From a plasmid: a stretch of DNA of 64,000 nucleotides. Under the pieces are notes generated by a model, which saw only the letters and a list, made by a program, of their open reading frames with translations, was not told the origin of the DNA and made no database searches. Shown in pieces: positions 28,899-64,000 of this stretch. A program made the position numbers and the translations under genes. Position 1 is the stretch's first letter, and every line of letters begins with the position of its first letter. The stretch lies in the sequence record NZ_CP031419.1; one strand, 5' to 3'.

Positions 28899-29318
28899 GT
28901 GCCCCCGAAGAGCAGACAGGGCCATCGGCCTCACTCCGTCGAGAAGCGGACGCGCCGCCATGAGGCGCTGTTCGCACCCGCGGAGTGGGCACTAGTGGCC
29001 GCCGCGGCGGCCACTGTCGGGCTGAAGCCTGGCGCCTTCATCGCCAAGGCAGCCGTTGGTGCCGCGCGTGCGTTCGCCGCACAGCGCAATGGCTCAGCCG
29101 TCCGCACCAGCGGCCAGGTGGAGATCCTCATCGCCGAGGTTCGGGAGTTGCGCCGACTGCTGGGCAACGTGGCCGGGAATGTGAACGATGTCGCCAAGCA
29201 CGCGAACTCCACCGGCGAACTCGGCCAGAACGCGGACGCGGTGCTCGCCTACACCCGCAAGATCAACGGCCGCATCGACACATGGTTGGTTGAACAGCTT
29301 CGGCACGGTGCGCTGTGA
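28899..29318 (+). CDS. mobC: MobC-family mobilisation protein
   Basis: GNVAGNVNDVAKHANSTGEL matches the MobC signature (GNNLNQLAKhAN). Confidence 0.8.
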   Translation: MPPKSRQGHRPHSVEKRTRRHEALFAPAEWALVAAAAATVGLKPGAFIAKAAVGAARAFAAQRNGSAVRTSGQVEILIAEVRELRRLLGNVAGNVNDVAKHANSTGELGQNADAVLAYTRKINGRIDTWLVEQLRHGAL

Positions 29319-47172: not shown

Positions 47173-48039
47173 ATGCCATTGCTGCGCGTCGCTGTCCCGA
47201 ACAAAGGTTCTCTGAGCGAATCGGCTCTGACGTTGCTCACCGAGGCCGGGTATCGCCTACCGCGGGTGCGGAACAAGGAGTTGAACTGCTTCGATCCCGA
47301 GAACGAGATCGAGTTCTTCTTCCAGCGGCCCCGCGATATCGCGGTGTACGTGGGCGCGGGAACCCTGGATCTGGGGATCACGGGCAAGGATCTGCTCGAC
47401 GACGCCGCCGCGCCGGCGGAGTCGGTTCTCGACCTCGGGTTCGCCCGGTCGACGTTCTATTTCGCGGCGCGTCCGGACGGGCCGAAGTCGGTGGCGGACC
47501 TGGCGGGCCGGTCGGTGGCGACGTCGTATCCGGAACTGGTGCGCAAGCACTTGGCCCAGGCGGGGGTGTCGGCCAACGTCGTGGTGTTGCAAGGCGCGGT
47601 GGAGAACGCGGTCGCCCTCGGCTTGGCGGATGCGATCGCCGATGTGGTGGAGACCGGGACGTCGTTGGAGAACGCGGGCCTGGTCACCTTCGGTGAGCCC
47701 CTGATGAGGTCGGAGGCGGTGCTGATCCGCAGTACCACGGCGGAGTGGACCGATGAGCGGGCCGAGGCGGTGACGGTGATGCTGGACCGCCTCAACGGGG
47801 TGTTGACCGCGCGCCGGTACGTGATGGTCGATTACGACTGCCCGCGGGCGGTGCTCGATGCGGCGTGTGCGTTGACGCCGGGGATCGAGTCGCCGACGGT
47901 GTCGCCACTGGCGGACCCGGATTGGGTGGCGGTGCGGTCGTTGGTGGAGCGCAAGAGCATCAACCGCACCATGGACGACCTCAAGAAGCTCGGGGCCTCC
48001 GCGATCCTGGCGACCGAACTGGCTGCCTGCCGCCTATGA
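47173..48039 (+). CDS. hisG: ATP phosphoribosyltransferase (long form)
   Basis: MPLLRVAVPNKGSLSE...; 288 aa with HisG-typical length and motifs. Confidence 0.9.
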   Translation: MPLLRVAVPNKGSLSESALTLLTEAGYRLPRVRNKELNCFDPENEIEFFFQRPRDIAVYVGAGTLDLGITGKDLLDDAAAPAESVLDLGFARSTFYFAARPDGPKSVADLAGRSVATSYPELVRKHLAQAGVSANVVVLQGAVENAVALGLADAIADVVETGTSLENAGLVTFGEPLMRSEAVLIRSTTAEWTDERAEAVTVMLDRLNGVLTARRYVMVDYDCPRAVLDAACALTPGIESPTVSPLADPDWVAVRSLVERKSINRTMDDLKKLGASAILATELAACRL

Positions 48040-48326: not shown

Positions 48327-49685
48327 CTAGCGCCCCCGACCGCCCATGGAGTTCACTTCCGCGGTATCGGGGGCCCGGATCGGCCACAGTGCTGGTACAC
48401 AGCTTGATTCGTCGCGCTTACGCCGGATCTCCGGAATCTGGGCCCCCACGGGCCCGGATTCACGATCGGTGGTCAGCGTGTCGAACACCTCGACCGCGCA
48501 CCGGTCGGTGTAGGCCGCGACCTGATCAACGACCACCCGGACCCGGGCGGCGTCGGTGTCGGCGCGCAACCACGCCGCGGCGAAGCGGGGTTCGAGCAGG
48601 TCGGGGGCGGCGGTGAGGAGGGCGTCGAAGACGGTGTCGATGACGTGGCGCTGCCACGCCCGGCGGGCCCGCAAAGCGGGTGCACGGAGCACGAAGTGCA
48701 GGTGCACGGCTTTGAGTACCGCGATTTCGGCGCGGACGTGGGCGGGCACGACCAGATCGGCGGTGAACCGGTGGTGCGGGCCGAGTCCGGTGCCGGCTTT
48801 TGTCGCCTCTGTGATCGCGGTGGTGAACCGGGCGGTGAGCGCGTGCTCCAGCGCGGAGATCGCGGCCAGGTCGCCGGGCCCGGGGCGGGTGAGGGCAGCG
48901 ACGGCGGGCAGGCCCAGCAGGTCGTTGGTGTGGGCGTCGATGTCGTCGACGGCCACGGTGGTGAAGTGGCCGTGGGCGAGCTTGGCGAACTCGGCGCGCT
49001 CGGACGCAGACGTGAGCGGGGACAGGGTGATCGCACCGGTGCGCAGCCCGGCGGTCAGGTCGGTGACAGCGTTGGCGATGTCGTCCGCTGTGTCCATGAT
49101 CTGCGCCTCCACGCACAGCCGCCGATCCGGTGCGCCGTGGCGGACCCAGGCCAGGGTGTCGGCGTCGTCGGGGTAAGCGCCGAACTTGCGGGCCGGGCCC
49201 GGGGTCCACGGGTATTTGCAGGTCGCGTCCAGGCTGGCGCGCGTCAGGTTCAACCCGCCACCGGTAGCGGTGCTGGGTTCGAGTCGGGTGAGGATGCGCA
49301 GGGTCTGGGCGTTGGCCTCGAACCCGAGCCCGTGGGCGCGGGCCTTGGTGCGCAACGCCATCTCGCCGTTGTGCCCGAACGGTGGATGTCCGAGATCGTG
49401 TGCCAGGCAACCGGTTTCGACCAGCGTGGGGTCGGCGCCGACGCCGAGGGCGATGCGGCGGCCGAGGGTGGCCACGGTCAGGGAGTGGGTGAGCCGGTTG
49501 TGGGGTACCGGCCCGGCGTCGGGTTCGTCGACCTGGGTGATGTTCGACAGTCGGTGCAGCGCGCCGCTGGCGAGCAGCCGGCCGCGGTCGTGGTCGAACA
49601 CGGTGGCCGGATCGCGGTAGGGGTGGCCGTGTTCGGGGATGCGGCGAGCCCGGTCGTGGTGGCTGTAGCCGGTCGGGGTCGTCAT
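48327..49685 (-). CDS. dgt: dGTP triphosphohydrolase-like HD-domain protein
   Basis: HD motif HSLTVA...AHDLGHPPFGH. Confidence 0.85.
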   Translation of the reverse strand: MTTPTGYSHHDRARRIPEHGHPYRDPATVFDHDRGRLLASGALHRLSNITQVDEPDAGPVPHNRLTHSLTVATLGRRIALGVGADPTLVETGCLAHDLGHPPFGHNGEMALRTKARAHGLGFEANAQTLRILTRLEPSTATGGGLNLTRASLDATCKYPWTPGPARKFGAYPDDADTLAWVRHGAPDRRLCVEAQIMDTADDIANAVTDLTAGLRTGAITLSPLTSASERAEFAKLAHGHFTTVAVDDIDAHTNDLLGLPAVAALTRPGPGDLAAISALEHALTARFTTAITEATKAGTGLGPHHRFTADLVVPAHVRAEIAVLKAVHLHFVLRAPALRARRAWQRHVIDTVFDALLTAAPDLLEPRFAAAWLRADTDAARVRVVVDQVAAYTDRCAVEVFDTLTTDRESGPVGAQIPEIRRKRDESSCVPALWPIRAPDTAEVNSMGGRGR

Positions 49686-49704
49686 CGGCGTGGTCCTCTC
49701 GTCG

Positions 49705-50458
49705 CTATGGGGTGATCGGCTCGTCGACGGTGGTCGACGCGGCGAACAGGGCCTCGATCTGGGCGGGGTGCAGGTAGCGGGTGATCAGTGGATCGGTCCG
49801 GAACCGGGCGGCCGGGACGCCGAGGAACCGGTGCTCGAGGTACATCAACCGCCGAAACACCAGCCGGTAGATGTGTGCGGGGACGCCGTGGCAGGAGACG
49901 GTCAGCAGCTGCCCGGCGTGGTGGTGGCGGCGGAGTTCGAGGGTGCTGATCAGCCGGTTGGTGTCGAGCAGCCGCAACTGCCCGGCGACGTCGACGACGA
50001 GGTTGTCCATCGGCGGATCGATGAAGTCCGGGATCAGCGACGCTTCGGCATCGAGGGCGGGCACCGGCGCGGTGTCGGCCAGCAGCCCGCGCACCACGCC
50101 GGTGAACACGGCGAGCTGGTCGAGGGTTTGCCGCGGGAGCCGGTGGCGCGCGGCGATGCGCAGCGACCAGGCGGGCGCCACCGGCACGAAGTCCTTGACC
50201 ACCACCGCCTCGCACAACCGCGCGGACGGGGCGGGCAGCAGCAGGCGCTCGTTCGGGATCAGGCCGGGCAGGACCGGATCGAAGATCGCCCGCAGGTATC
50301 GGTACTCGCGGCGCACCTTGGCCACGGTGAGTTCGGGGGCGTCGGGCCGGAACACCTGCATCACCACCGGGCTGCCGGGCCGGTGGTAGACCGTGGAATG
50401 GTTGCCCTGCCCGATCGCCCGATGCCGCCGGGCCGTCCCGATCACCGCGGTCATGCCC
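49705..50458 (-). CDS. kinase-like protein (P-loop-like GQGNHSTVY)
   Basis: Real part of track ORF 49705..50994. Start MTAVIGTARRH. 8-nt overlap with the upstream GT gene. Confidence 0.55.
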
Positions 50459-51784
50459 GCACCGCCTCGTGGGAGCCGATGACCTGGGCGTAGCCGGTGG
50501 CCATCTGCTCCACCCCGAACCGGGTGGCACTGGCCCGCCCGTTGCGCGCCAGGCGCCGGTGCAGTGCGGTGTCGGTGAGCACGCGTGCCAGGGCGTCGGC
50601 GAGCGCGCCGGGATCGCTCGGTGGCACCAGCAGCCCGGAGCGGCCGTGGTCGATGTAGTCGCGTGGTCCGCCGTGGTCGGTGGTGATCACCGGGGTGCCG
50701 GCGAGCATCGCTTCGATGTTGGCGTAGCCGAACGCTTCCGGGCAGCGCGACGGCAGTACCGCGACCGTCGCGGCCCGGTAGCAGGCCGCGACCTCGACCG
50801 GGGAGAGCTCGTCGAGCAGGAACACCCGCCCGGCCAGGTCGCTGGCGTTGATCAGATCGGTCAGCTCCCGGGTGTAGTCCAGGGCGCGGGTGTCGTGCAT
50901 GTCGTGGCCGTTGAACACCGCGAACGCCTCCCCGGCGACACCGCGGGCGGACAGGATGCGCAGGGCGGCGATCAGATCGGCGTGGCCCTTCCACGCCACC
51001 CGCCGCGCCGAGAGCAACACCATCGGCCCGTCCGGAAGCTGGTTGCGGCGCGCGAGGGCGGCGAAGGCGTTCTCGGCGGCGGCCGCGCGCATCCGGGACT
51101 CGAACTCGGCGATGTCCATGCCGTTGGGCACCGTGTGGACCCGCTCGCCGGTGATTCCGGCCTTGGCCAGGTGTTCGGCCACCGCGGTCGACACCGCGAC
51201 GATCCGCACCGAGTGCTCGGTGACCTCGAGACGGCGGCGCAGGTAGTCGAACCGCCGCTCGGCGCCGGCGAGATCGTGCACCACCCCGGTCACGTTCAGG
51301 CGGCCGACGCCGGCCGCGGCCAGCCGACCGGACTGTTCGGCTTTGAGCACCGACACGATCGGATTGATGTTCTGCGCCAGCAGATCCGGTGTATCGGCGG
51401 TGGCGATGACGTAGGCGTACTGCCGCGCCAAACCCGCATACACCGGATTTGCCGGGTCGTCGATGGCGTCCTCGTAGAAGTGGCGCACCCGCGCGGGGTC
51501 CTTGCCGCCGTCCGCACCGCCGAGGTACTGGCCGAACCCGCTCCGAATCCCTTGGGCCAGCACCACGGTGCCGTCCGGGGTGCGCAACTGGTAGGCGCCG
51601 GGGCGGGTGGCGCCGGTCTGGGTGATCGCCCAGCGCGTCCCAGGATGCCGGGCGGCCAGCGCGGCGAGCAGATGGTGGGTGTGGGCGACCAGACCGGTGT
51701 GGCGACAGGGTTTTCGCTGTCCCGTGGCCACGACGGTGCCGTGCATGTCGTAGGTGAGGATGTGCATCGCCGACGGGAATTCCA
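50451..51784 (-). CDS. glycosyltransferase family 4
   Basis: EAFGYANIEAMLAGTPVITTDHGG (GT4 EX7E region). Start MEFPSAM with a GGAGGACGGT RBS. Confidence 0.8.
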
Positions 51785-51990
51785 TACCGTCCTCCACGTT
51801 CCGAGACGACCGGATCAACAACCCCAGCAACCGGTTTCGGTGAACCAGGTCACATCAGGACACCGCGCGTATGGCCGGTCGCGGCAGTGGTGCGCTTGGT
51901 GCGTTTCGGTGCGTTTCGGTGCCGAGAGCGCACCGCGGTCGGTACCCTCGCCGCATCGACGCCGACGATCCGGTCCAGGGGGCGAGGTGG

Positions 51991-53361
51991 GTGAACGCAC
52001 AGCTGGCCACGTTGTTGTCCGACCTGGGATGGCGGCCGGAAACCTTCGCCCGCAAGCTGAGCGAGCACGCCCAGCTGCACGGACGCCGCGAGCATGTCCA
52101 CCCGAAAACCCCCTACAAATGGCTCGCCGGTGCCCGCCCGCGCTCACCCTGGCCGGACCTGGCAGCAGCGCTGCTCACCGCCGAACTCGCCCGGCCGATC
52201 ACCCCCGCAGACCTCGGGTGGAACGCCGCCCCCACCGCTCCGCTACTCCCGGCCGACTCCGGGCTGGACGGGCCATGGACAGCGGAAGGGGCCTTGCGCG
52301 CCATAGCGGCGGTCACAGAGGCTGATCCCATGCAGCGAAGGCTCTTCCTCACCCTGATGGGCACCGCGATCACCGCGCCAGCGCACCAGTGGCTACTCGC
52401 CGCCGAAGGCAGCGACCTCACCCACACCGCCGGCACGCGCATCGGGATCGGCACGGTCGAGGAGATCGACACCATGACCGCCAGCCTGCGCCGCATGGAC
52501 GACCAGCTCGGCGGCGGCACCCTGCTAAAAATGGTCCGCGCCCACCTGCGCCACGTCCTGAACCTGCTGCGCCACGGCAGCTACGACGACACCACCGGAC
52601 GCCGCCTGCACGCCTCGGCCGCCGAACTCCTGCGCCTGGCCGGATGGCTGTGCTTCGACACCAGCCAGCACGCCCGCGCCCAGCGCTACTGGGTCGCCGC
52701 GCTGCGCACCGCCCACACCGCCGGCGACCGCGCCCTCGCCGCCAACGTCCTCGGATTCATGAGCTGCCAGGCCAAGGACATCGGCCAACCCCGCGAGGCC
52801 GCGATGCTGGCCGACACCGCGATCTCGGGCTATCCCGGTGCCAGCGCACGAGTTTCAGCGATCCTGCAACTGCGCGCCGCCGAAGCCCACGCCGTCGACG
52901 GATCGCCGACCAACACCCGCCGCGCCATCGACGCCGCCTTCACCCACCTCGATACCCCTACCGACGGAGCGCCGGACTGGAGCTACTGGCTCGACGAAAC
53001 CCACGCCCACGGCCAAGCCGGATACTGCTACCTGCGCCTCGGAGAACACAGCGCAGCCCGGCATCACCTTCGGGCCGCGCTACGCAACAGCAGCGGCAAC
53101 GACTCCCGCGAAGGCGCTCTTCGCTACGCGCTGCTGGCCACCACCTACGCCCGCCAGCCCGAACCCGACATCGACCACGCCCTGCACCACGCCGAACACG
53201 CCGTGGACCTGCTCACCGCCCAGGTCACCTCGACCCGGGTGACCGGCCACCTCACCACGCTGCTCAGCGACCTCACCCCTTACCGCCACCGACCCGGCGT
53301 CCGCCAACTATCCGACCGCGTCCGCGCACTCCAGGCAGCCACCAGCAGCAGAAGCGCCTGA
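51991..53361 (+). CDS. XRE-family transcriptional regulator with TPR-like C-terminal domain
   Basis: GTG start with a GAGGTGG RBS. N-terminal HTH (AQLATLLSDLGWRPETFARKLSEH). Confidence 0.7.
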   Translation: MNAQLATLLSDLGWRPETFARKLSEHAQLHGRREHVHPKTPYKWLAGARPRSPWPDLAAALLTAELARPITPADLGWNAAPTAPLLPADSGLDGPWTAEGALRAIAAVTEADPMQRRLFLTLMGTAITAPAHQWLLAAEGSDLTHTAGTRIGIGTVEEIDTMTASLRRMDDQLGGGTLLKMVRAHLRHVLNLLRHGSYDDTTGRRLHASAAELLRLAGWLCFDTSQHARAQRYWVAALRTAHTAGDRALAANVLGFMSCQAKDIGQPREAAMLADTAISGYPGASARVSAILQLRAAEAHAVDGSPTNTRRAIDAAFTHLDTPTDGAPDWSYWLDETHAHGQAGYCYLRLGEHSAARHHLRAALRNSSGNDSREGALRYALLATTYARQPEPDIDHALHHAEHAVDLLTAQVTSTRVTGHLTTLLSDLTPYRHRPGVRQLSDRVRALQAATSSRSA

Positions 53362-53839: not shown

Positions 53840-54907
53840 TCAGTCGTCACAAATGCTGCCTGGTGTTCGGCCGCGTGTCGCCCGGAGACGGGAGTCGTCG
53901 TGGCGGAAGTCGGAGGGGCTGCCGGAGTTGCTGTCGGGTTCGGGGGTGTCGTAGGCGGCGGCTGCGTCGGCGTGGTGTTGTCGTAGCGCAGCGCGGAGTT
54001 CGGGGGGTTGTTCGATGATCACGTCGCTGCCGAAGCTGGCGACGAGTGGGATGAGCCATTTCCAGCGGTCGACGTAGAGGACGATGCGGGTGGTGCCGTC
54101 GGGGTCGTGGTGGACTTCGGAGTCGGGTTTGAGTCCCAGGCGCAGCATTTCCTCGCGGCTGCCGGGGCGCACGCGGATGACGACTCGGGTGGGTCCGCGG
54201 CCGAAGTCTTCGAGTGCTTGGCGCCACCAGTCCTTGAGGTTGAAGGTGGTTTCGGGGTAGACGAACTTCAGGTCGGTGGCGGTGAGCCGGTCGATGTTGT
54301 TGAGCTGGTAGCGCTGGGGTTCTGAGTGTGGTGGTGCGGCGACGAGCCACCATTCCCCACCTTTCCAGACCATGCCGTAGGGCTTGACGATGAGGTGCTG
54401 GTGGTCGTCGCTGTGGTGGACGCGGACGGTGATCTGGATGGCGGTCCCGGTGAGCAGGGCCTCGCGGAGTGTGGCGAGGTGACCGGAGCTTTCGTCGCGC
54501 CAGTACCAGTCGGTGGTGTCGAAGTAGATGCGGTGGGCGAGACGGTGCAGGAACCGGGCGCGTGAGGCGCTGACGTTGTTCCTGCCGGAGTTTGCTTCGC
54601 CGCCTGTGGGTTCGGGGTGGGCGTGTCCTTGTTCGAGGAGGCCGAGGACGTAGAGGCGCAGGGCGTCGTCGCCGTCGACAAGCAGGGAGTCCAGCGGTTG
54701 ATCGGTGGTGAGCCGGAATCCGCCGCCGCGGCCGGCCACGGACTCGATCGGGATGCCGAACGCGATCAGTTCCTCGATGTCGCGGTAGATGGTGCGCGCA
54801 TTGACGCCGAACCGGGCGGCCAGCGAGGTCGCGGAAACCCATGTGCGGGACCGCAACTGGTGAACGATGGCGGTGTGGCGGGCGTGGCGTGGGTTGGTCG
54901 GCGGCAT
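53840..54907 (-). CDS. YafY/WYL-domain transcriptional regulator
   Basis: N-terminal HTH (VSATSLAARFGVNARTIYRDIEEL), then WYL and C-terminal WCX-like regions. Confidence 0.8.
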   Translation of the reverse strand: MPPTNPRHARHTAIVHQLRSRTWVSATSLAARFGVNARTIYRDIEELIAFGIPIESVAGRGGGFRLTTDQPLDSLLVDGDDALRLYVLGLLEQGHAHPEPTGGEANSGRNNVSASRARFLHRLAHRIYFDTTDWYWRDESSGHLATLREALLTGTAIQITVRVHHSDDHQHLIVKPYGMVWKGGEWWLVAAPPHSEPQRYQLNNIDRLTATDLKFVYPETTFNLKDWWRQALEDFGRGPTRVVIRVRPGSREEMLRLGLKPDSEVHHDPDGTTRIVLYVDRWKWLIPLVASFGSDVIIEQPPELRAALRQHHADAAAAYDTPEPDSNSGSPSDFRHDDSRLRATRGRTPGSICDD

Positions 54908-54933
54908 GCGCGCGAGTCTGCTCGGCGGTGTGG

Positions 54934-56031
54934 TCAGCTCGCTGCGGCGGCCTGCCGGTAGACCTCGATCAGACGGCGGCCGACCGATTCCGCGGTGTAG
55001 TTGCTCAGGTGCGCGGTGACCGCGTCGTGGTCAGCGGGTTCTGCGTCGCAGACGGCGATGATGTTCTTGGCCAGGATCTCCTCGTCGTGCGGGTCGGTGT
55101 AGCGGGCGGCCAGGCCGCCGGTGACTTCGCGGAGGACGGGCAGGTCCGAGCACAGCAGCGGTGTTCCGGCGACGAGGGCTTCCTGGGCGGGGATGCCGAA
55201 GCCCTCGAACAGGGTGGGGAACACGAACGCGGTCGCGGCCCGGTACAGGGCGGCGAGCTCGGCGTCGCCGATGTGGCCGAGGATCGTGATCTCGGGGTCG
55301 CGCATCGGCAGGCCCCGTTCCCAGCCGCGGCGCCCGGCCAGCAGCAGCCGGGCCGGTACCTGGTCGGGGGCGGCTGCTCGGGCGAGCCGGAAGGCGCGGA
55401 CGAGGCGGGGGATGTTCTTCGACGGCATGTACACGCCGACGCCGAACAGGAAGGGCTCGGACGGGGCCAGGGCCGGGTCGGCGGTGCGCAGTTGGTGCGC
55501 GAAGTCGGTGGCCACGTAGTTCGGTACGACCTCAAGGGGTTTGCCGAGATCGCCGAGGGCGCCGACGATATCGGCGCGGGCCGCGTGGGAGACGGTGATG
55601 ACCGCGCGCAGGTCCTCACCGGCCAGCAGGGTGTGCAGGCGCGGGTTCTGTACGTCGCGGACTGCGCGGACCATCTGGTCGGGGAACAGGTAGCGGCCGG
55701 CGTCGTGCAGGGTGAACACCGCGGGCCGCGGCAGGGCGGCGGGCAGCGCGAACGGGTAGTGCACGAGGTCGGCGTCGAAGTGCTCGATCTGGCGGTGCAG
55801 GTGGTGTTCGCGCCGGTCCGGCACGGTGAGAACGCGGATACCCGCGCGCTGGGCACGCGGGTATCGGTCGGCATGCTCGGCGGTGAGCACGACGGCGATC
55901 TCGACCTTCTCACCGGTCGCGGCGAGGGCGTCGGTGAGCAGGTGGATGTAGCGTTCGACACCGGTCTGGATGGTGGCGCGCCAGTAGCGGGCGTCGATCG
56001 CCACGCGCAGTGCTCGGTCAGACACGGGCAC
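54934..56031 (-). CDS. glycosyltransferase family 4
   Basis: FEGFGIPAQEALVAGTPLLCSD motif. Confidence 0.8.
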   Translation of the reverse strand: MPVSDRALRVAIDARYWRATIQTGVERYIHLLTDALAATGEKVEIAVVLTAEHADRYPRAQRAGIRVLTVPDRREHHLHRQIEHFDADLVHYPFALPAALPRPAVFTLHDAGRYLFPDQMVRAVRDVQNPRLHTLLAGEDLRAVITVSHAARADIVGALGDLGKPLEVVPNYVATDFAHQLRTADPALAPSEPFLFGVGVYMPSKNIPRLVRAFRLARAAAPDQVPARLLLAGRRGWERGLPMRDPEITILGHIGDAELAALYRAATAFVFPTLFEGFGIPAQEALVAGTPLLCSDLPVLREVTGGLAARYTDPHDEEILAKNIIAVCDAEPADHDAVTAHLSNYTAESVGRRLIEVYRQAAAAS

Positions 56032-56970
56032 CGGATTTCACGCCGACCTGCGTGCCCAGCTGCGCTACCCAGGTCTCGGTGTCGGTGGTGAGGAAGTCGA
56101 GCACGGTGTCGCCGAGGTCGCCCCAGCGGTCGGCGATGAACGCGGTGACCGTCTCGGGGGTCGGGTTCGGGTCGTCGAGGTAGAGGCGGCCGATCACGTC
56201 GACGACGTAGGTGTCGACGTGGGCGTGCCCGCCGGTGCCGTAGGACAGGTTCACCGCGAGGTTCGCGGTGTAGGGCCCGACGCCTTTGATCTGGAGCAGG
56301 TCGGTGATGACCTCGGCGGTGGGGCGGTGGCGCCATTCGTGCCAGCTGTAGCCCGCCTCGGCCAGCGTCGCGGCGGCGGCCGCGAGTCCTTTGGCGCGGA
56401 ACCCGACCTTGCAGGCCCGCAGCTGCTCGTCGCTGGCCTGTGCCAGCTGCGCGGGGGTGGGGAAGGCGTAGATCGTGGCGTCGTCGACGGTGGTGTCGGT
56501 GGGCACGCCGAAGGCTTGGGCGAGGTTGCGCATCATCGCGTAGATGCGGGCGAAGTTGGTGCGCTGAGCGCAGATCACCCCGCACAGCGCTTCGAAGATG
56601 TCGGGGTAGAGCTTGCCGCGTCCCAGCCCGCGGTGCGCGACGGCGGCCGCGAGCACCGGGTCGTCGGCGGTGAGGGCGTGCACCTGGTCGTAGGGGTAGT
56701 CCAGTTGCAGGCAGCGGGTCAACGTTTCGGTGACCGCCGCGACGGTGGCGGTGTCGAGGTCGGGGCCGGTCAGGGTGGCGCTCAAGGTGGTCGGCGCGGT
56801 CTGACGAATCCGGGCGGTGGTGATCGTGGCATCGCCCGGCCCGGTGCGCACGGGCCGCACCAGGTCCTCGCCGTCGCGCACCCACGGGTAGATCAGGTAG
56901 GTCTCCAGCGCGTGGGTGAAGTCGACGTGGCCGTTGACCGGCAGCTCGATCACGGTGGTCTGGTCGGTCA
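56018..56970 (-). CDS. AlkA-like HhH-GPD DNA glycosylase
   Basis: HhH LQIKGVGPYTANLAV, catalytic Asp region HVDTYVVDVIGR and an AlkA N-terminal domain. Start MTDQTTV. The gene is embedded in the operon by overlaps. Confidence 0.65.
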
Positions 56971-57905
56971 TGCGATCACCAGGTCCTCGAGGTAGCGCAG
57001 CGTCGGGGTGCCGGTCAGGTCGACTTCGACGTCGAGGCCGAGCGGCAGCGGGAACTTGGTGGAGGTGTGCCCGAATTCGGCGCCGGTGACGATCGGGAAG
57101 TTCCCGCCGGCGCAGCGCAGGATCAGCTCGTCGTAGGTCTCGTCGGGGGCGTCGTCGCGGGGGCTGTCGACCGGTGCGGCCACGACCAGACCGGCGATGT
57201 GGTCGAGCACTCCGGCCAGCCGCAGGTGGGTCAGCGCGGCATCGACCTGCACCCACGGCACGAACACCTCCTCGAGGATCAGCACCGCCCCGCGGGTGTC
57301 GGGCATCCACGGGGTGCCGACGAGGGCGCGGATGGTGCCCAGGTGGCCACCGACGACCGGGCCGGAGAACACCCGCCCGGCCCCGCGCGGCACCCGCCAG
57401 TCGCTGCCGGAGACTGTCTGTCCCTTCACCCGGCCGGACACGATGGACCAGAACCGGTCAGCGGTCGCCGAGTTCACCGGTTCCCGGGTGAAGTCGTAGC
57501 CCGTGGGCCCGTGCACGGTGGCCAGCCCGGTCCGCGCAGTGATCGCATTGGCCACGATCACCGGGTCCGACAAGGCGGTGAACACCGTCGGGTTCTCGGC
57601 GATCACCGCGTAGTCGAGCAGGTCGAGCAGCTGCGCGGCGCCTTTGCCGCCGGTCGCCGGGACGATCAGGCCGATGCCGGGGTCGGCGAAGGCGGCCATG
57701 AGGTCGGCGGCCCGGTCGGCGGGCGGCCCGGCGAGGTAGCCCGTCGCGGCCCGCGCGTGCGCGCCGACGGTGACCGGGTGCCCACGATCAGCGAAATACG
57801 CTGTGAGCCGGTCGAGTTCGTCGCCGGGGACCGGTGAGGAGGTGGAGACGATCGCGACGCCGGTGCCGGGGGTGACGGCGGGAGGCCGGATTACGGGGCG
57901 GGTCA
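56968..57905 (-). CDS. LD-carboxypeptidase (S66, MccF/LdcA-like)
   Basis: Real C-terminal 312 aa of track ORF 56968..59931 (start MTRPVIRPP). ATGA overlaps on both sides. Confidence 0.7.
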
Positions 57906-60304
57906 TGGTTGTGGTGCTCCTGCTCGTGTCGTCGGGTCGATGTCGCGCACCACGCGCACGCCGACCAGATGCCCGCACTTCTCGGCGGCTTCCAGCGGGC
58001 GCACGGTCGTGCGCAGGAAGTACGTGTTGGAGGCCACGTCCCCACCCCGGTAGACCGGGTGGCCGCGGTAGGAATCCGAACACCACTGCCAGACATGGCC
58101 GGTCAGGTCGGCGAGACCGAACGGTGATGGCCCGTCGTCTCCGTCGTCGATGGTAGACACGGCCGCACCGCGCTCCAAGCACCGTGGCGGACCGGGCAAC
58201 GCTGCGCCCCAAGGGAACCAGCGCCCGTCGCTGCCGCGCGCGGCGTACTCCCATTCGGCCTCGGTCGGCAGCCGGCCACCAGCCCAGCCCGCGTACCGGT
58301 CGGCCCAGTCGAACGGCACGATCACCGGCTCGGCGGGCCGCTCGGCCCGCACCGGGGTCTCGGCGAGGGTGAACCCGCCACCGGCCGCGTGGGCCGCGGC
58401 GGCCGCGTCGTCGGGGGCCAGTGCGGTCAGGAACCGGGCGAACTGGGCGCGGGTGGCCGGGGTGACGCTGAACCACACGCCGGCGATGTCCACCGGCGCC
58501 TGCCCGCGTTCCCCGATGGGCTCGATGCCGAACACCGCCCGCACCACGTCGGCTTCGTCGTCGGTGAGGCCGGGCGCGAACCGGGCGGCGGGCAACCGGA
58601 TCTCGCGCGCACCGTCGACCGCGCGCCGCCGTGTCGGCAGACCGGTCGCCGGTTCGGCGGCCGGGCGGGTGGTGAGGTAGTTGGTGAGCACGGTGAGCAT
58701 GTCGGCGGGGGCGATGCCGTCGCGGGTCGCGGTCGGGCCGGTGAACCAGGCCCCGCCGTCGCCGATCCCGTCGGGCCCGTGCTCGGCGGCCCACCCGATA
58801 TCGGCGAACCAGGCGGCGTAGGCGTCGTTGCGGCCGTTGGGCCGGAACACCGCGGTCAACGTGGGGATGTCGCGGCGGTGGGCGTCGCGGCGGATGAGAT
58901 CGAGCATCCGCTGGTGCGTGCCCGCCCACAGCAGGCGGCAGCTGGCCAGCAGCGAGTCCAGCCGCGCCGTGCCGTCGCGGTAGTCGACCTCGGCGACGCC
59001 GACGATTTCCGGCGCCAGGGCCGTGCCGTGGTAGCGGACCTCGAACGCCAGCACCGCCCAGTCCGGGTCGGCGGCCAGCTTGGCCAGTTCGTCGGCGCTG
59101 CGCCGGGGGGAGGTCATGTTGAACTGGTTGCTGCGCTGGTGCAGCTGCGCGCACCGGTCGAGCACCGCCGGGTCGGTGGGATCGGTCAGGCACACCACTT
59201 CCGGGATCAGCTCGCCGGTGGCCTTGGCCCGATAGAACGCGGTGCGGGCGGTGTCGGAGGCGGTGACCGGCGCCGCACCGGGAGGCGGAAGCTGGGCCAG
59301 CAGGTCCGCGACGAGCAGCGGCGGCCCGGCCACCGACGGCACCCGCAGGTCCGGCCACACCGTGCGGGCCCGTTCCTGCTGCGCCGGGTCGTCGTCGACG
59401 AACACCACACTGTCGGGGGCGATGCCGTCGAAGAAGCCGAGGATGTCGGTGATCCGGTCGGCCTTGTCGATATCCGGCTGCGCCCACAGCCCGGCCAGCC
59501 CGATATCGGCGGCGTGGGCCTGCACCGCGGCCGCGGCGGCGTCGCGGTCGTTGCGCGACAGGCCCGCCACCAGCGTGCCGTGGGAGCGGCGATCGGCCAG
59601 CACCGACCGCCACACCCGGTGCGGTGCCGCAGCCAGCATGTCGGTGCCGTCGAGACCGGTCGTGCCGTCCTCGGCGACGGTGCCGGGCCACAGGACTCCG
59701 TCGAGGTCGCTGATCACCGCTTTCGGCCCCGGCTGGGTCTGTGCGGCGATCAGCTGCCAGTGCAACCAGGCCGTATCCACCAGCCCCGCCCACAGCGCGG
59801 CCGCGCGGATGTGTCGCCCCATCGCCCGCAGCGCCGCCGACGTCGCCGGGTAGTCCGCGCCGGCGGACAGCACATCCAGGGACGCGACCCGGTGCAGCGC
59901 GGCCACCGTCACCCCGTGGCGGGCAGCCCACTGCGACAGGGCGCGGTTGGCGTCCTCGATCACCGCATCGATCCGGCCGTCACCGGTGAAGGGCACGGTC
60001 TGCACGATCACGGCGGGTTCGGCGGCCGCGACCTGTTCGACGGCGTCGACCAGGCCGGTGGCCGCGCCCGCGTCGCCGGTGAAGATCGCGGCGGCTTCCG
60101 GCAGGGCAGCGGTGACCAGCACGGTCGCGGTGATCTCGTCGCGGTCGGGGGCCAGGCGGGCGGTGAGCCGTCCCAGCAGCTCGCCCAGCGCGGGCAACGC
60201 CACCGGCTCGGGCAGCAGACGCAGGCACAGCCCGGCCCCGGGGTCGCCGAACCCGGACTCGAGGCTGGTGAGCCAGTGCAGGTAGTTGGTCTTGGTCATG
60301 GGAG
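57903..60304 (-). CDS. multidomain protein: N-terminal region, FkbH-like HAD domain, C-terminal FGE-sulfatase (SUMF1-like) domain
   Basis: HAD motif ISDLDGVLWPG. FGE-like GHVWQWCSDSY...YRGG. Start MTKTNYLHW. Confidence 0.7.
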
Positions 60305-61061
60305 ATCCCCCGGAATATCGGCGTCCAATCGGATGATCTGGCCGCTCACGTACTGCCACGACGGGTCGCACACCACCGCGACCGTCGTCTGCGCGACCTC
60401 GTCGATGCTCAGCGCGCGGCCCCACGGCAACCGCGCGTAGTAGTCGGCCGGGTCGGTGATGCCTTTGCGGGCCAGGATCTGCTCGGCCATGGGCGAGCAG
60501 ATCAGCGACGGCGCAACCACATTCACGCGCACCCCGTGGCCCGCCTCTTCCTTGGCCAGCGTCCACGCCAACGCCTCCAACGCCGCCTTCGACGCGCTGT
60601 AGGCGCCGTTGCCGGGCGTGCAGGTCGCCGCCGCCTGCGAGCTGAGCACCACAACCCGCGCCCGCCCCGACCGCGCGGCCGGATGCACCGCCCGCCACAT
60701 CTGGTGCAGCGCACCGGCATTGACCGTGAACAGGTCGGACAATTCGGCGGGGGATGTCGCGTCCAGGCGGGCCTTGCTCGAGGCCGCGCCGGCGGCGAAC
60801 ACCATCACGCCCAGGTGCTGCCCGACGGCGGCCGCGAGCCCGCCGAGATCATCGCCGGACCGGGCATCGAACCGGGTCCAGGTCAGGTCCGGCGCGGCTG
60901 GGCCGGTGCCGGTGGTCGAGGTCGCCACGACGCGATGCCCCCGCTCGAGCAGAAGCTGCACCACCGCGGCGCCCACCGCGCCGCTGCCACCGATCACCAG
61001 CGCAGCACCCGCACCGTCGCGCGGTGCGTGCCCGCCCGTCTCAGACTCCAGCGCGGCGGCC
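60296..61061 (-). CDS. SDR-family oxidoreductase
   Basis: ALVIGGSGAVGAAV (TGxxxGxG) and YSASKAAL (YxxxK). GTG start with a GGAAGGAGG RBS. Confidence 0.8.
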
Positions 61062-61458
61062 ACGGTCGCCTCCTTCCACCGGGTCGGAGTCGGGGTGGTC
61101 GGTGACGAACATGTCCTGGAAGCGCATCTGCCGGTCCGGGATGCCGAAGAACGCGCCGATGGCACGGGCCCGCTCGGCGGCCGCCTCGTCGCCGCGCCGG
61201 ACCTGGACCACGACACCGGGAAAGATCACGATCATCAGCTCGTCGTCGAGCAGGTGCGCGTACCACCCATCTGGTGCGAGCACCGCGGCCAGCCGAACCG
61301 CGACCTCGGCGGCGCGTCCCGGCGCGACCTGCACCTCGAGCACCTCGACCGGGATGCGCCGGTCCAGCAGGTGCGGATACGAGCCGGTGAGCACCACCGG
61401 CATCGGCAGCGGCAGGCTCCGATCCGGCAAGCTCTCCCGCAACACGATCCCGCGCATG
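61041..61458 (-). CDS. hypothetical protein
   Basis: 139 aa (MRGIVLRESLPD...). Start overlaps the upstream rSAM stop. Confidence 0.45.
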
Positions 61459-61459
61459 C

Positions 61460-62815
61460 TCAGCTCACCCCCGCGCCGGGTGCCTTGACCAGGCGAGTGT
61501 GCGCGCGAGCGCGGGCCACCATCTCGCTGCTGGTCCACGGCGTCTGCGAGTCGTAGTAGTCGAAGTCCGCCCACTGCGCCAGCGTCGTCGGCGCCTGGAA
61601 CCCTCGTTCGAGCGCCAGGTCGAACAGCGGAACGCCCGGGAAGGGCCCGAACAGGTGCACGCGGGTCTCCGGACGCGGGTCCAACGTGCTGATCTCCTCG
61701 ATCAGGCTGTAGGTCGCCTCGATCTCGGCCTCGGTCTCGTCCGGGAATCCGACGATGAACGTGTACGCGCCGAGAATCCCGTGGTTGGCGATATCGCGGG
61801 CGACATCGAGAACCTGGGCTCGGGTGACCTCCTTGCGCACCACCTCGCGCAGTACCCGGTCGTCGCCGGACTCGATACCCATCAGCAGTCGGCGGCAGCC
61901 GGAATCGGCGATCGAACCGAGCAGGTCGAGCCGCTGCTTGCGGGCGCGCAGCACGTCGTTGGGGTTGATCGAGGCCGCCCACGCCAGGTCGATGCCGCGC
62001 TCGGCCTTGAGCTGGCAGAACTCCACCGCCCGGCGCACGTTGACGAACCAGTCCGCGTCGTAGAACTTCACCCCGTTGATGCCGTAGCGATCGGCGAGGT
62101 CGGCCAGGTCGTCCAGCAGCGAATCCGCCTGCATCGCACTGTATTTGCGCTGATAGGTCAACTCGTAGCAGAACGCGCACTTGTACACGCAGCCCTGGGA
62201 GGACACGTAGTTCAAGGTGCGCGGCGCCACGGTCGGGTCGTCGCGGATGTAGTCGCCGACGGCCAGCAGGTCCCACGGGTAAGCACCCAGGTTCCCCGCC
62301 CGCGGCGGGTTGATCGGTCCCTCGATCCGGTTGCGGCCGTGCACGGCGAGCAGGCCGGGCACCGAGTCCCAGCCGGCCCGGTTGCGCAGGGCCTCGACGA
62401 ACGCGGGCATCGATGCCTGTCCCGGGCCTGCCAGCGTGACGTCGACCAGCTCGTGCTCGGCGGTCTGCTCGGCGAGCACATTGACGTGCGGGCCGCCGAA
62501 CACCAGCGGCGGGCAGCCCGGACGGTTCTGCGCCACCTCGGCCATCTCCAGGGCGTGCCGGATCTGCGCGCCGCCGGTCATGATGCTGATCCCGATACAC
62601 ATCGCCCGGTCGGCGTGCTCGTCGAGGAAGCCCGGCCACTCGGTCTGCGGACGCTGGTTGCCGTCGAAGATCACCACCTCGACGCCGTTGTCCATCAACG
62701 GTTTGGCGATGGTGAGCAGCGAGAACGGCATCCAGTGGTACAGGTAGTCCTTCTCGTGCTCCACCTGCGGATACACCAGGATCACCAACGGGCGATCCAC
62801 CAGCAACGCGGTCAC
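61460..62815 (-). CDS. B12-binding radical SAM protein (class B)
   Basis: N-terminal cobalamin-binding-like region plus a CVYKCAFC radical SAM cluster motif. Confidence 0.85.
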   Translation of the reverse strand: MTALLVDRPLVILVYPQVEHEKDYLYHWMPFSLLTIAKPLMDNGVEVVIFDGNQRPQTEWPGFLDEHADRAMCIGISIMTGGAQIRHALEMAEVAQNRPGCPPLVFGGPHVNVLAEQTAEHELVDVTLAGPGQASMPAFVEALRNRAGWDSVPGLLAVHGRNRIEGPINPPRAGNLGAYPWDLLAVGDYIRDDPTVAPRTLNYVSSQGCVYKCAFCYELTYQRKYSAMQADSLLDDLADLADRYGINGVKFYDADWFVNVRRAVEFCQLKAERGIDLAWAASINPNDVLRARKQRLDLLGSIADSGCRRLLMGIESGDDRVLREVVRKEVTRAQVLDVARDIANHGILGAYTFIVGFPDETEAEIEATYSLIEEISTLDPRPETRVHLFGPFPGVPLFDLALERGFQAPTTLAQWADFDYYDSQTPWTSSEMVARARAHTRLVKAPGAGVS

Positions 62816-63897
62816 GACGACACCCCCACCACGGGCAGCATCCGAACCCCGCTGGACTGGCCGCCACCGGGGTGGAAGCTCGCCCCGGCGTAGGTCGCCA
62901 ACGCATCGGCCAGCGCACGCTCCAGCCGCGCCGGATCGTGCAGGATCGGCGCGAGCGGCACCGAGATCTCATCCCGCAGCAGGCAGAACTGCAACCGGCG
63001 ATCGGCGGTCAGCCGCAGCGCCATCAACGCATCATGGCACGGGAAGAACCGGCACCCCGAGCACACATCGCCGTACCAGGCCCCGGCGCGGCTGTCCTTC
63101 AGCACGACCTCGAATCCCGAGGCCAGGGTCATCACCGTCATCGGGTGGCCGAGCCCGCCCTGAGACCGGCTCTCCACCACCACCGCGCGGGCCCGCAGCC
63201 CTCCCGCCACCTCCTCCAGCGGCACATACAGCGACTCGACCGTGGCACCGCCGCGGGTGATGGCCAGCCGCCGGGCGAAGGACTCGGCGCCGGCGTCCAG
63301 GTCGCGGATGACATCGAGCAGCTTCAGCGTCGCCACGCCCTCGCTCTCGCACCACGCGGCCAGATCGGGCACCTCACCCGCGTTCACCCCGGCCATCACC
63401 ACCGTGTTGATCTTCACCGGCACACCGGTGGCCACGCAGGCGCGCATCGCCGACTGCACCTCGGCCAGGTCGTCGATACCGCAGATCTGGCGGTGCAGGC
63501 CCGCGTCCAAGGTGTCGATGCTCATGTTGAACTGGGTGACCCCGGCCGCGGCGAGCGCACCGGCCCGCTCACCGATTCGCGGGTGCCGCGAGATCACCTC
63601 GATCTCCGACATCCCCGCATCCCGCAGCCCCGCCACCGCTTCCTCGAGCGGGGCCCACAGTGCCGGATCACCACCGGTCAGCTTGATCGAGGTCAGGCCA
63701 CGCTCGACCAAGGGCGCGACGACGGCCAGCAAGTCGGCCACGGTCAGTTCCTCCCCCGCGGTGGTGGCCACCGCCTCCCCCGAGGGGCGGCAGAAGAAGC
63801 ACGCCCGCCCGCACCGCGAATTCACCGTCACCCGGAACTGCGGCAGCCGCTCGGGGAAACCTTGACGTTCCGACATTGCTTTCATACCTGTCATCAT
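62812..63897 (-). CDS. radical SAM protein with C-terminal auxiliary-cluster (SPASM/twitch-like) region
   Basis: CGRACFFC (CxxxCxxC). C-terminal Cys cluster CSGCRFFPCHD...C. ATGA overlap with the downstream B12-rSAM gene. Confidence 0.75.
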   Translation of the reverse strand: MMTGMKAMSERQGFPERLPQFRVTVNSRCGRACFFCRPSGEAVATTAGEELTVADLLAVVAPLVERGLTSIKLTGGDPALWAPLEEAVAGLRDAGMSEIEVISRHPRIGERAGALAAAGVTQFNMSIDTLDAGLHRQICGIDDLAEVQSAMRACVATGVPVKINTVVMAGVNAGEVPDLAAWCESEGVATLKLLDVIRDLDAGAESFARRLAITRGGATVESLYVPLEEVAGGLRARAVVVESRSQGGLGHPMTVMTLASGFEVVLKDSRAGAWYGDVCSGCRFFPCHDALMALRLTADRRLQFCLLRDEISVPLAPILHDPARLERALADALATYAGASFHPGGGQSSGVRMLPVVGVSS

Positions 63898-63980
63898 GAG
63901 CCCATCTCAAGCGAAATTGCCGACAGTACAACAGAATTCGATGTCAGTGTTTCTGTGCGCGGCGCGCGAAACCCTGACAT
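63894..63980 (-). CDS. 28-codon ORF translationally coupled to the radical SAM/SPASM gene (candidate precursor peptide)
   Basis: MSGFRAPRTETLTSNSVVLSAISLEMGS. Its TGA overlaps the rSAM ATG (ATGA). GGAAG lies 10 nt upstream. Codon usage is atypically AT-rich. Confidence 0.3.
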   Translation of the reverse strand: MSGFRAPRTETLTSNSVVLSAISLEMGS

Positions 63981-64000
63981 CGAGAGTGCTTCCGAACCAC

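Follow-up and report, generated by a model that had tools for sequence, protein, structure and literature searches.

A conserved gene cluster with two radical SAM enzymes on a conjugative Nocardia plasmid and its putative WYL-regulated, non-ribosomal pathway

Introduction

What does an operon make that combines two radical S-adenosylmethionine (rSAM) enzymes with a peptidase, a DNA glycosylase and a glycosyltransferase, and does it start from a ribosomal peptide? The question is raised by a minus-strand gene cluster in a 64,000-nt stretch of plasmid sequence NZ_CP031419.1 (hereafter the window, meaning the whole stretch that was analysed). An earlier reading of the same letters (the original prediction) had described a tightly coupled operon in which a 28-codon open reading frame (ORF), placed in front of a radical SAM/SPASM gene, was the candidate precursor of a RiPP, a ribosomally synthesised peptide with post-translational modifications. 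We do find a tightly coupled, co-transcribed biosynthetic operon of unusual composition that no characterised pathway was found to match, and all of the large ORFs with the domain content described for them are present on the minus strand, with the exception of the SPASM assignment. Our reading of its purpose is a different one: with a probability of roughly 0.55, we consider this to be a WYL-regulated biosynthetic operon for an acylated small molecule made by a non-ribosomal pathway, the product possibly being derived from a purine nucleotide or aimed at DNA.

Operon organization and genomic context

The DNA is of high GC content throughout the window (approximately 0.62-0.74), and the operon occupies positions 53840-63897 of the minus strand, with mostly 4-nt overlaps between co-directional genes. 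Ten features were counted, consisting of nine genes (B to J, the third of which is called D138 here), all with a GC content at third codon positions (GC3) of 0.84-0.94, and the 28-codon ORF (A) as the tenth. The nine genes are as follows.

62812-63897, minus strand: B, predicted MoaA-paralogue rSAM enzyme, 361 aa when counted from its first ATG, with 63885 and 63876 as other possible starts; Pfam Radical_SAM
61460-62815, minus strand: C, B12-binding-domain rSAM enzyme, 451 aa; Pfam B12-binding and Radical_SAM
61041-61457, minus strand: D138, orphan 138-aa protein without a family match, ferredoxin-like fold
60296-61063, minus strand: E, short-chain dehydrogenase/reductase (SDR), 255 aa; Pfam adh_short/adh_short_C2
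57903-60299, minus strand: F, fusion of FkbH-like and formylglycine-generating enzyme (FGE)-like parts, 798 aa
56968-57906, minus strand: G, S66 serine peptidase (LD-carboxypeptidase/MccF family), 312 aa; Pfam S66 N and C domains
56018-56971, minus strand: H, HhH-GPD DNA glycosylase of the AlkA/OGG clade, 317 aa; Pfam HhH-GPD
54934-56031, minus strand: I, family 4 glycosyltransferase (GT4), 365 aa; Pfam Glyco_transf_4, Glycos_transf_1 and GT4-conflict
53840-54907, minus strand: J, regulator with helix-turn-helix (HTH), WYL and WCX domains, 355 aa, last gene of the unit; Pfam HTH_11, WYL and WCX

Five junctions are 4-nt overlaps, of the ATGA type at A/B, E/F, F/G and G/H and of the GTGA type at B/C. 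The claim that every junction overlaps by 1-21 nt was right about the tight coupling, but D138 and E overlap by 23 nt, C and D138 are separated by a 2-nt spacer, and I and J by a 26-nt gap. The H/I junction is ambiguous, being a 14-nt overlap or a 13-nt gap by choice of the GTG start of the glycosyltransferase gene (56031 or 56004). The SDR gene E also starts with GTG and has GGAAGGAGG in front of the start as its ribosome-binding site. Two genes have to be added to the list that was originally given, as the 138-aa gene at 61041-61457 between the B12-rSAM and SDR genes had been overlooked, and the unit does not end at 54934 since the WYL regulator gene (53840-54907) belongs to it.

At the other end, the operon had been thought to continue past the end of the window, which proved wrong. 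Other assemblies that carry the same DNA have a 128-nt intergenic region upstream of the rSAM gene and then a divergent 130-aa gene, and because this next gene is divergent the operon stops before position 64000 with no upstream continuation. The divergent gene (equivalent to 64026-64418 of the window; 8398-8790 in locus L001, on the minus strand of L001) encodes a paralogue of D138 with 30% identity (E value of 4e-10). The conserved DHP motif is missing from it, and it is confined to the FkbH-type loci described below, and the intergenic region with its putative operator is common to both sides.

The same DNA was found in an 83.6-kb Logan contig, in a contig of Nocardia neocaledoniensis (98% protein identity) and on Nocardia cyriacigeorgica plasmid NZ_CP026745 (99.7% protein identity). 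In the last of these (NZ_CP026745.1, 117871-128692) the cluster is interrupted within the B12-rSAM gene by an insertion that carries a site-specific integrase, the chromate resistance genes chrA and chrB, a group II intron-type reverse transcriptase and an IS256 transposase. Elsewhere the window holds conjugative-plasmid functions (a relaxase, a coupling protein, ParA and a 2156-aa methyltransferase/helicase), and the host replicon of the operon is a conjugative Nocardia plasmid.

The gene cluster family

A scan of one genome per GTDB species identified 51 loci with related clusters. The actinobacterial hosts are Nocardia, Micromonospora, Streptomyces, Streptacidiphilus, Prauserella, Frankia and Actinomadura, the more distant ones, in which the palindrome described in the next section is absent, are a Calothrix plasmid, Bryobacterales, Brevundimonas, Rhodobacteraceae and several Firmicutes metagenome-assembled genomes (MAGs), and the rSAM gene is found on seven PLSDB plasmids. 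Using tblastn synteny and a presence/absence matrix, we determined that the constant core of the cluster is the rSAM enzyme, the B12-rSAM enzyme, the S66 peptidase, D138 and the SDR. Two mutually exclusive types are built around this core. Type I (approximately 33 loci) has a 336-aa paralogue of the catalytic core of lysyl-tRNA synthetase (LysRS), and type II (the window and approximately 10 others) has no such paralogue and carries F, the GT4 glycosyltransferase and the divergent D138 paralogue instead; in the same matrix the GT4 gene is confined to the FkbH-type loci. In Actinobacteria, the last genes of the loci, whichever the type, are those of the WYL regulator and the glycosylase, and a Micromonospora chromosome (CP192031) has exactly the ten-gene arrangement of the window together with the divergent paralogue.

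Several loci depart from these two arrangements. Two of them have NRPS (nonribosomal peptide synthetase) parts in place of the loading enzyme or in addition to it. In an Actinomadura variant (L012) the order is D138, a didomain of a peptidyl carrier protein (PCP) and a condensation (C) domain, a major facilitator superfamily (MFS) transporter, a stand-alone adenylation (A) domain, the rSAM enzyme and the B12-rSAM enzyme, and in a Streptosporangiaceae MAG (L047) the core is accompanied by an MbtH-A-PCP protein and an ABC-2 exporter. In approximately 12 Streptomyces loci an MsbA-type exporter and a NUDIX gene follow the cluster. The Calothrix plasmid has a minimal six-gene type I core without the WYL regulator and the glycosylase. 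On this plasmid (AP018278, 14285-16101) a group II intron with its reverse transcriptase lies directly after the SDR gene, and for this reason the original 3′ end of the minimal cluster may have been lost.

We favour a small-molecule pathway because the core is conserved, the acyl- or aminoacyl-activating enzyme is interchangeable and exporters are occasionally present. A conserved core with a swappable loader, be it an aminoacyl-tRNA synthetase (aaRS) core, an FkbH-like enzyme with a GCN5-related N-acetyltransferase (GNAT) fold or a nonribosomal peptide synthetase (NRPS), and with exporters is a secondary-metabolite signature, that of one scaffold decorated with different acyl or aminoacyl groups. 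Full-text literature searched for combinations of the components gave no description of such a cluster, and the family, which is widespread and has all of its parts from known superfamilies, is previously undescribed. Three other identities were considered and rejected: a phage origin or a phage DNA-hypermodification cluster (phage matches to the rSAM enzyme are at most 39% identical and mostly partial), the sinefungin cluster, which combines a B12-rSAM enzyme with peptide aminoacyl-tRNA ligases (PEARLs) and has a different gene set, and the NTP-dependent conflict systems of the type described by Aravind, for which no matching architecture was found.

The 28-codon ORF and the promoter region

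The DNA upstream of the rSAM gene B contains three features that bear on the question of a ribosomal precursor.

63894-63980, minus strand: 28-codon ORF (A), MSGFRAPRTETLTSNSVVLSAISLEMGS, judged to be non-coding promoter/5′ leader DNA
63942-63979, no strand: putative palindromic operator TGTCAGGGTT-N18-AACACTGACA (right arm AACaCTGACA), 38 bp with 10-bp inverted arms
63866-63875, minus strand: third half-site-like motif TGTCGGAACG, overlapping the start of the rSAM coding region

The ORF does exist, ending as originally described in a TGA that shares bases with the first in-frame ATG of the rSAM ORF. The coupling that was read into this overlap is insecure, because the RefSeq start of the orthologous rSAM gene is 12 nt downstream of that ATG and related rSAM proteins begin at the equivalent of 63885. 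With 361 ORFs of 28 codons or longer that begin with ATG in the window, one in this place is no more than chance would give. We judge it to be non-coding, and not a gene, because its GC3 is 0.50 as compared to 0.84-0.94 for the genes, it is not conserved, and its frame is an antisense shadow, being the tail of a 197-codon open frame that runs antisense to the divergent gene. No match to the ORF was found by tblastn outside conspecific DNA. The nearest orthologous loci are those of a plasmid of Nocardia sp. CA-084685 and of N. miyunensis, where the rSAM proteins are 78% and 74% identical and the neighbouring proteins 62-82% identical, and in these two loci the frame from the equivalent ATG encodes MSGYL and a stop (5 aa) and an unrelated 21-mer, respectively, the latter stopping 18 nt short of the rSAM gene. 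Across more than 30 loci the equivalent frames are 0-80 aa long and unrelated, and the ATG is missing in most of the other loci.

The original prediction had named conservation of the ORF in syntenic loci as the point on which the precursor would stand or fall, and the ORF is absent from the homologous loci, where a conserved palindrome is found instead. A RiPP locus, in which the 28-aa peptide would be modified by an rSAM/SPASM enzyme and the B12-rSAM enzyme and trimmed by the S66 peptidase, can still point to the ORF with its overlapping stop and to the best NCBIfam match of the B12-rSAM enzyme, namely ApyD from RiPP biosynthesis (110 bits, cutoff 750). Besides the lack of conservation, the codon composition and the downstream RefSeq start, this reading has against it that the ORF sits in the 128-nt divergent intergenic region overlapping the conserved putative operator, that its peptide has no Cys, and that Pfam and NCBIfam detect neither a SPASM domain in the rSAM enzyme nor a RiPP recognition element (RRE) or PqqD-like domain in any of the ten proteins; the fold of D138 is ferredoxin-like and not that of a winged-helix RRE. 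With tblastn, frame analysis and codon composition in agreement, we rejected the precursor and consider a RiPP locus highly improbable. A more general caution can be drawn from this, which is that in DNA of 70% GC what looks like a short ORF directly next to a radical SAM gene can be no more than an operator translated into codons.

The start codon (ATG) of the 28-codon ORF consists of the base before the palindrome and the first two bases of the palindrome itself. The palindrome is unique in the window (0 expected from 100 shuffles). With up to one mismatch allowed in each arm, every one of 32 sequences (1.09 Mb in total) has a single copy of it, in all cases shortly upstream of the rSAM gene. 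Its form across loci is TGTCAGGGTT-N18/19-AACCCTGACA, with the 10-bp arms kept, while the spacer of 18-19 bp, the flanks and the reading frame vary. In addition, 24 of 29 loci have a (T/C)GTC(A/G)G motif at a distance of 60-67 nt downstream from the right arm, where 0.03 would be expected in a 20-nt window. This third half-site is kept despite differing encoded N-termini (MDRQG, MNVSD and MTVRD), which suggests a constraint at the DNA level, possibly a second contact of the regulator. The half-site sequence TGTCAG(G/T)G may resemble the RecA-NDp element of PafBC. No riboswitch or other Rfam element was detected at gathering thresholds in the leaders of seven loci.

Most likely, the palindrome is the putative operator of the operon's own WYL regulator, J. 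This regulator has the HTH, WYL and WCX domains of its class, its best solved relative is PafBC (7p5x), and it is co-linear with the cluster in approximately 40 loci. The palindrome is present in the actinobacterial loci, nearly all of which have the WYL gene where the contig reaches far enough, and is missing from complete loci without a WYL gene. Among the WYL regulators, BrxR, CapW and DriD are homodimers that act on an adjacent operon, and PafBC is a heterodimer. J shares its HTH-WYL-WCX architecture with these and with SiwR, and a palindrome in the promoter of the neighbouring operon is what has been shown for SiwR, in line with homodimeric WYL regulators binding palindromes in promoters of adjacent operons (PMC10693628). 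The present pair differs from these regulators in the make-up of the operator, which has 10-bp arms, an 18-19-bp spacer and a third half-site at approximately +61, and in the regulator being the last gene of the operon that it would control.

The radical SAM enzymes

The first enzyme, B, had been called a radical SAM/SPASM protein. Pfam finds Radical_SAM alone, with no SPASM domain (PF13186, marked by a seven-Cys motif) at an E value of 0.01 or below, and the SPASM-family NCBIfam models cover only the N-terminal core (residues ~20-195), so the SPASM assignment was rejected. The best NCBIfam matches are both MoaA models, TIGR02666 (121.2 bits, cutoff 284.05) and TIGR02668 (120.5 bits, cutoff 325.25), the archaeal moaA model spans residues 17-333, and the best solved relative is S. 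aureus MoaA (1tv7). We therefore class B not as a SPASM maturase but as a paralogue of MoaA, the GTP 3′,8-cyclase of molybdenum cofactor biosynthesis. An alignment of 15 sequences shows that the CX3CX2C motif (C29/C33/C36) is invariant, as are R22, K72, N124, K162, N164 and K192. The last five of these probably correspond, by the alignment with S. aureus MoaA, to nucleotide-contact positions of MoaA. Further invariant residues are C183 and, in a MoaA-like arrangement, C279, C282, C287 and C305 within '...C..C....CHDALMALRLTAD.RLQFCLL'.

MoaA binds GTP via R17, R266 and R268 and by N1 coordination to its three-Cys auxiliary cluster (PMC9026282). R22 of B aligns with R17, and R295 in 'LRLTAD' is a plausible counterpart of R268; HMMER gave no alignment of the C-terminal half with S. 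aureus MoaA, which left R266 without an identified counterpart. Similar to MoaA, then, B has the CX3CX2C core, the R17-type Arg, a Cys-rich C-terminal domain with an 'RLTAD..L..CL' motif and invariant auxiliary-cluster Cys residues (C279, C282 and C305). It differs from MoaA in a 9-residue insertion that places an extra invariant Cys in the auxiliary-cluster motif and in always being paired with a B12-domain rSAM enzyme. Since the R17-equivalent Arg and the C-terminal cluster domain are kept, a purine nucleotide is our leading guess for the substrate of B, and a guess is all it is because of the extra Cys, the unaligned C-terminal half and the lack of molybdenum cofactor (Moco) genes, none of which, moaB/C/D/E included, are present in any locus examined. 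The C-termini of the B family are variable, with no conserved GG tail.

The second rSAM enzyme, C, has a B12-binding domain (PF02310, residues 26-139) and an rSAM core (PF04055, residues 204-372), and this much of its description as a class B rSAM methyltransferase holds. The methyltransferase part is unproven, because its best solved relative is the dehydratase AprD4 (6fd2, 61 bits; TokK follows more weakly) and no NCBIfam model reaches its cutoff, that for AprD4 giving 68 bits against 500 and those for ApyD, PhpK and BchE scoring similarly; the family resemblance is thus at superfamily level. AprD4 is a radical SAM diol dehydratase of apramycin biosynthesis, which does not methylate and works with the SDR-type reductase AprD3. 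The cluster resembles the AprD4/AprD3 pair in that AprD4 is the nearest solved relative of C and an SDR is always in the cluster, whereas the similarity of C is of superfamily level only and there is no aminoglycoside context here. The best NCBIfam match of the SDR itself (E) is the aminopentanone reductase of elongation factor P (EF-P), far below cutoff.

The 138-aa protein and the remaining enzymes

D138 is the signature gene of the cluster family. It folds confidently, with a predicted local distance difference test (pLDDT) score of 88.6, into a ferredoxin-like structure with generic structural neighbours only, and it matched no known family. The protein is rare (211 cluster representatives among 1.84 billion), and Y66, H68, D120, H121 and P122 are conserved family-wide, while the C-terminus is variable and disordered. 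Two D138 paralogues are present in type II loci and in some others. In different genomes its fusion partner is the SDR (in a Bacilli MAG as well), the S66 peptidase or the LysRS-like core, to whose N-terminus it is attached, and it is likely a shared substrate-binding adaptor for the SDR, S66 and LysRS-like steps.

Protein F consists of a BF1531-like N-terminal domain, a haloacid dehalogenase (HAD)-IIIC phosphatase domain and a GNAT-fold domain, which together are FkbH-like, and a C-terminal domain that is similar to FGE and the C-terminal part of EgtB. Its AlphaFold (AF2) model has a pLDDT of 83, with Foldseek matches to 3slr, GNATs and EgtB/OvsA and a fold that fits BF1531. The family contains approximately 35 proteins, all of approximately 800 aa and all actinobacterial, in which D198/D200, K279, D302/D303, C454, C740, H747, C775 and H777 are invariant. 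The original name of an FkbH-HAD/FGE fusion is borne out in its folds and motifs but not in its FkbH family scores or its FGE catalytic segment. As in FkbH, the HAD/acyltransferase that forms glyceryl-ACP (ACP, acyl carrier protein) in methoxymalonyl-ACP pathways, the HAD-IIIC DxD, Lys and DD motifs are present, all of them invariant, and are followed by a GNAT-fold domain and an invariant Cys. F nevertheless remains below the FkbH family cutoff (TIGR01686, 88 against 146.65 bits; TIGR01681, 20.7 against 35.75), is fused to the FGE/EgtB-C-like domain and has no ACP in its operon. Pfam finds no PP-binding domain or carrier protein in the operon, and a PCP only in the variant locus L047. The C-terminal domain matches PF03781 (FGE-sulfatase) well above cutoff (84.3 against 23.3 bits, residues 600-785), but the FGE catalytic Cys pair is lacking: alignments with six FGE structures end at 'WQWCSDSY', and by inspection the stretch 'RGGDVASNTYFLR' has Ser and Leu at the expected Cys-pair positions. 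EgtB-type domains alone align to the end of F. As the FGE alignments stop before the catalytic Cys segment, we judge that F is not a functional FGE.

The peptidase G has both S66 domains (PF02016 and PF17676) and an intact Ser113-Glu212-His280 triad that is found in 40 of 40 homologues. Its earlier description as MccF-like stands as to the S66 family and triad, but not as to MccF over LdcA, since G is equally similar to structures of both and the subtypes are not separable by sequence score. The AlkA-like glycosylase was confirmed, H being an HhH-GPD protein of the AlkA/OGG clade by its domain (PF00730, 47.8 bits), by its catalytic Asp253 (35 of 36 homologues) and by its nearest structures, the AlkA-type 3-methyladenine DNA glycosylase 4ejy and OGG1. 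The HhH hairpin and Gly/Pro loop are present, the residues I228-G-V-G-P-Y234 and D253 being shared by 34-36 of 36 homologues, and the ogg equivalog cutoff is missed (67.7 against 397.85 bits). Because Tyr234 takes the position of the lyase Lys, H is predicted to be monofunctional. The glycosyltransferase was likewise correctly named, as Pfam places I in the GT4 family.

Proposed pathway and alternative explanations

In the pathway that we propose, the two rSAM enzymes and the SDR would build a scaffold, possibly from a purine nucleotide, with the AprD4-like rSAM enzyme and the SDR acting as a dehydratase/reductase or methylase pair and D138 as an adaptor that would bind the substrate for several steps. 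F may then acylate the scaffold and the GT4 enzyme may glycosylate it, and in type I loci Lys or another amino acid would be attached instead. The S66 hydrolase could cut the acyl or aminoacyl bond, be it to protect the producer as MccF does or to mature the product, and the glycosylase H could clear product-derived lesions from the DNA of the producer. A WYL dimer would bind the palindrome and switch the operon in response to a nucleic-acid or stress ligand.

Two groups of known systems resemble such a pathway. Microcin C is an aminoacyl-nucleotide "Trojan horse" antibiotic with MccF immunity, and ascamycin is a nucleoside antibiotic that uses an aaRS-like ligase. The likeness consists of an S66/MccF-family hydrolase that occurs with an aaRS-core ligase (in type I) and a nucleotide-type rSAM enzyme, following the logic of an interchangeable promoiety. 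Here, by contrast, an MccB/ThiF enzyme and a precursor peptide are both absent, the type found in the window has the FkbH/GNAT/FGE protein and GT4 in place of the ligase, and the S66 enzyme is equally close to LdcA. In the genotoxin clusters of azinomycin and yatakemycin, the DNA glycosylases AlkZ and YtkR2 provide self-resistance. Comparable to these, an alkylpurine-type DNA glycosylase is translationally coupled to biosynthetic genes here, and the regulator belongs to a class of DNA-damage sensors, but the glycosylase is HhH-GPD (AlkA/OGG) and not HTH_42 or AlkD-like, and the biosynthetic enzymes are unrelated.

A number of observations weigh against a small-molecule operon of this kind, the most general being that every chemical step is deduced from superfamily membership. 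The rSAM enzyme B scores far below the MoaA cutoff, the equivalents of R266/R268 are not alignable, and C287, a fourth invariant Cys that lies in an insertion, could complete the ligation of the auxiliary cluster, which would argue against guanine N1 binding in the style of MoaA. The FkbH-like enzyme F is without a carrier protein partner in the operon. A transporter is missing in the type II operon and in its Micromonospora twin. The palindrome is missing from four non-actinobacterial loci that have a diverged WYL gene. Lastly, defence islands, too, typically feature HhH-GPD and WYL genes, residence on a plasmid and a dGTPase nearby.

This last point leads to the main alternative, an inducible conflict or anti-phage system, in which the WYL regulator would turn the operon on upon infection or DNA damage, a viperin-like intracellular nucleotide analogue would poison phage replication, and the glycosylase and S66 hydrolase would limit self-damage. 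WYL regulators commonly adjoin defence systems and the PADLOC WYL models match J at 1e-29, B is weakly similar to prokaryotic viperins (pVip, 34 bits), and the GT4 enzyme matches the 'GT4-conflict' Pfam family; a conjugative plasmid carries the locus, with a dGTPase as its neighbour, type II loci have no exporter, and the family is scattered across phyla and plasmids. However, no enzyme matches any system model of PADLOC-DB v2, and with only the generic WYL match and the weak pVip match to go on, a known defence system was rejected. The NRPS modules and MFS/ABC exporters of the variants are what would be expected for a secreted metabolite, minimal loci are without the WYL regulator and the glycosylase, and NsdA-type regulators of antibiotic production are frequent neighbours, all of which makes a defence role unlikely in our estimation.

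We also considered that D138 could be a new scaffold or carrier, loaded with an amino acid (by the LysRS-like or NRPS enzymes) or with a glyceryl unit (by the FkbH-like enzyme), on which the two rSAM enzymes and the SDR would tailor the cargo before S66 releases it, analogous to LysW-dependent or pearlin-type biosynthesis. In favour of this, D138 is fused precisely to a ligase, a reductase and a peptidase in different genomes, all three alternative loaders normally acylate a macromolecular acceptor, which for canonical FkbH is a carrier protein, S66 enzymes are carboxypeptidases, and there are two D138 paralogues in type II loci and some others. If this were true, the D138 pathway would be protein-templated small-molecule synthesis like that of LysW or pearlins, from unrelated parts and under WYL control. 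The C-terminus of D138 is variable and disordered, though, and is not free in the fusions, where the partner comes after D138; the residues that are best conserved (Y66, H68, D120 and H121) resemble a binding or catalytic site and not an attachment site, and there is no phosphopantetheinyl transferase and no ACP-like fold, leaving a carrier pathway distinctly unlikely. Less probable again is the modification of a macromolecule, where a base in DNA or RNA would be hypermodified, or a protein residue changed as in the lysylation of EF-P, with the glycosylase or peptidase editing the result. The LysRS-core paralogue resembles EpmA/GenX, the SDR has its EF-P aminopentanone reductase match (far below cutoff), HhH-GPD enzymes act on DNA, and the wider superfamily includes MoaA-type as well as B12-type rSAM enzymes that act on nucleic acids. 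Against these stand the absence of a DNA- or RNA-targeting transferase, kinase or recognition domain from the cluster, its sporadic and plasmid-borne distribution, which is not that of a housekeeping system, the NRPS and exporter variants, and the lack of any phage that carries the cluster.

Neighbouring genes on the plasmid

Several other genes of the window and its surroundings were annotated in passing. Downstream of the operon, an NsdA-family tetratricopeptide repeat (TPR) regulator lies at 51871-53361 on the plus strand (NF053720, 346 bits; precomputed Pfam 'SP15_N'), and relatives of it are found within 10 kb of the cluster in approximately 12 other loci, in varying position and orientation. 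It is followed, at 48327-51785 on the minus strand, by one operon of a GT4 glycosyltransferase (444 aa), a family-less 249-aa protein and a dGTP triphosphohydrolase, the last of which matches NF002829 above cutoff (420 bits) and the anti-phage dGTPase model below cutoff. Adjoining this dGTPase operon is a plasmid-borne, full-length HisG (ATP phosphoribosyltransferase; 47173-48039, plus strand), and at 40587-47057 on the plus strand is the 2156-aa protein, which has methyltransferase, winged-helix, DUF8437 and helicase domains. The plasmid backbone includes the relaxase (29315-30946), a 577-aa protein without a precomputed Pfam family that was taken for the coupling protein (30943-32676), and a ParA-like protein (37831-39018).

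Beyond the end of the window and upstream of the divergent gene, a seven-gene operon with an inosine-uridine-type nucleoside hydrolase and DUF4254 is present (L001, 4468-8285), which the orthologous Nocardia loci L002 and L004 do not share. Both this operon and the downstream dGTPase/GT4/HisG genes were rejected as parts of the system, as they are unconserved at other loci, and so was the NsdA-family regulator, a common neighbour whose position varies. A pair of DUF397 and HTH_31/DUF5753 genes (Scr1/WhiJ-like) occurs upstream of the type II cluster in the Nocardia plasmid (L001, 2814-4126) and in the Micromonospora chromosome (L058, 8386-9430), which may be coincidence given how common such pairs are in actinomycetes.

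Conclusions

The family described here is a compact and mobile gene cluster with a swappable acyl-activating enzyme and an uncharacterised 138-aa domain, which makes it tractable for genome mining and heterologous expression. If our reading of a WYL-regulated small-molecule operon holds, the well-conserved MoaA paralogue that is always partnered with a B12-domain rSAM enzyme would have a function outside of Moco biosynthesis, with new chemistry for two much-studied enzyme classes, and J and its palindrome would be a testable pair of WYL regulator and operator that could help to define DNA recognition and sensing by WYL proteins. Furthermore, the co-transcribed AlkA/OGG-type glycosylase hints at a DNA-directed or nucleotide-mimicking product, which would be of relevance to antibiotic and antiviral discovery.

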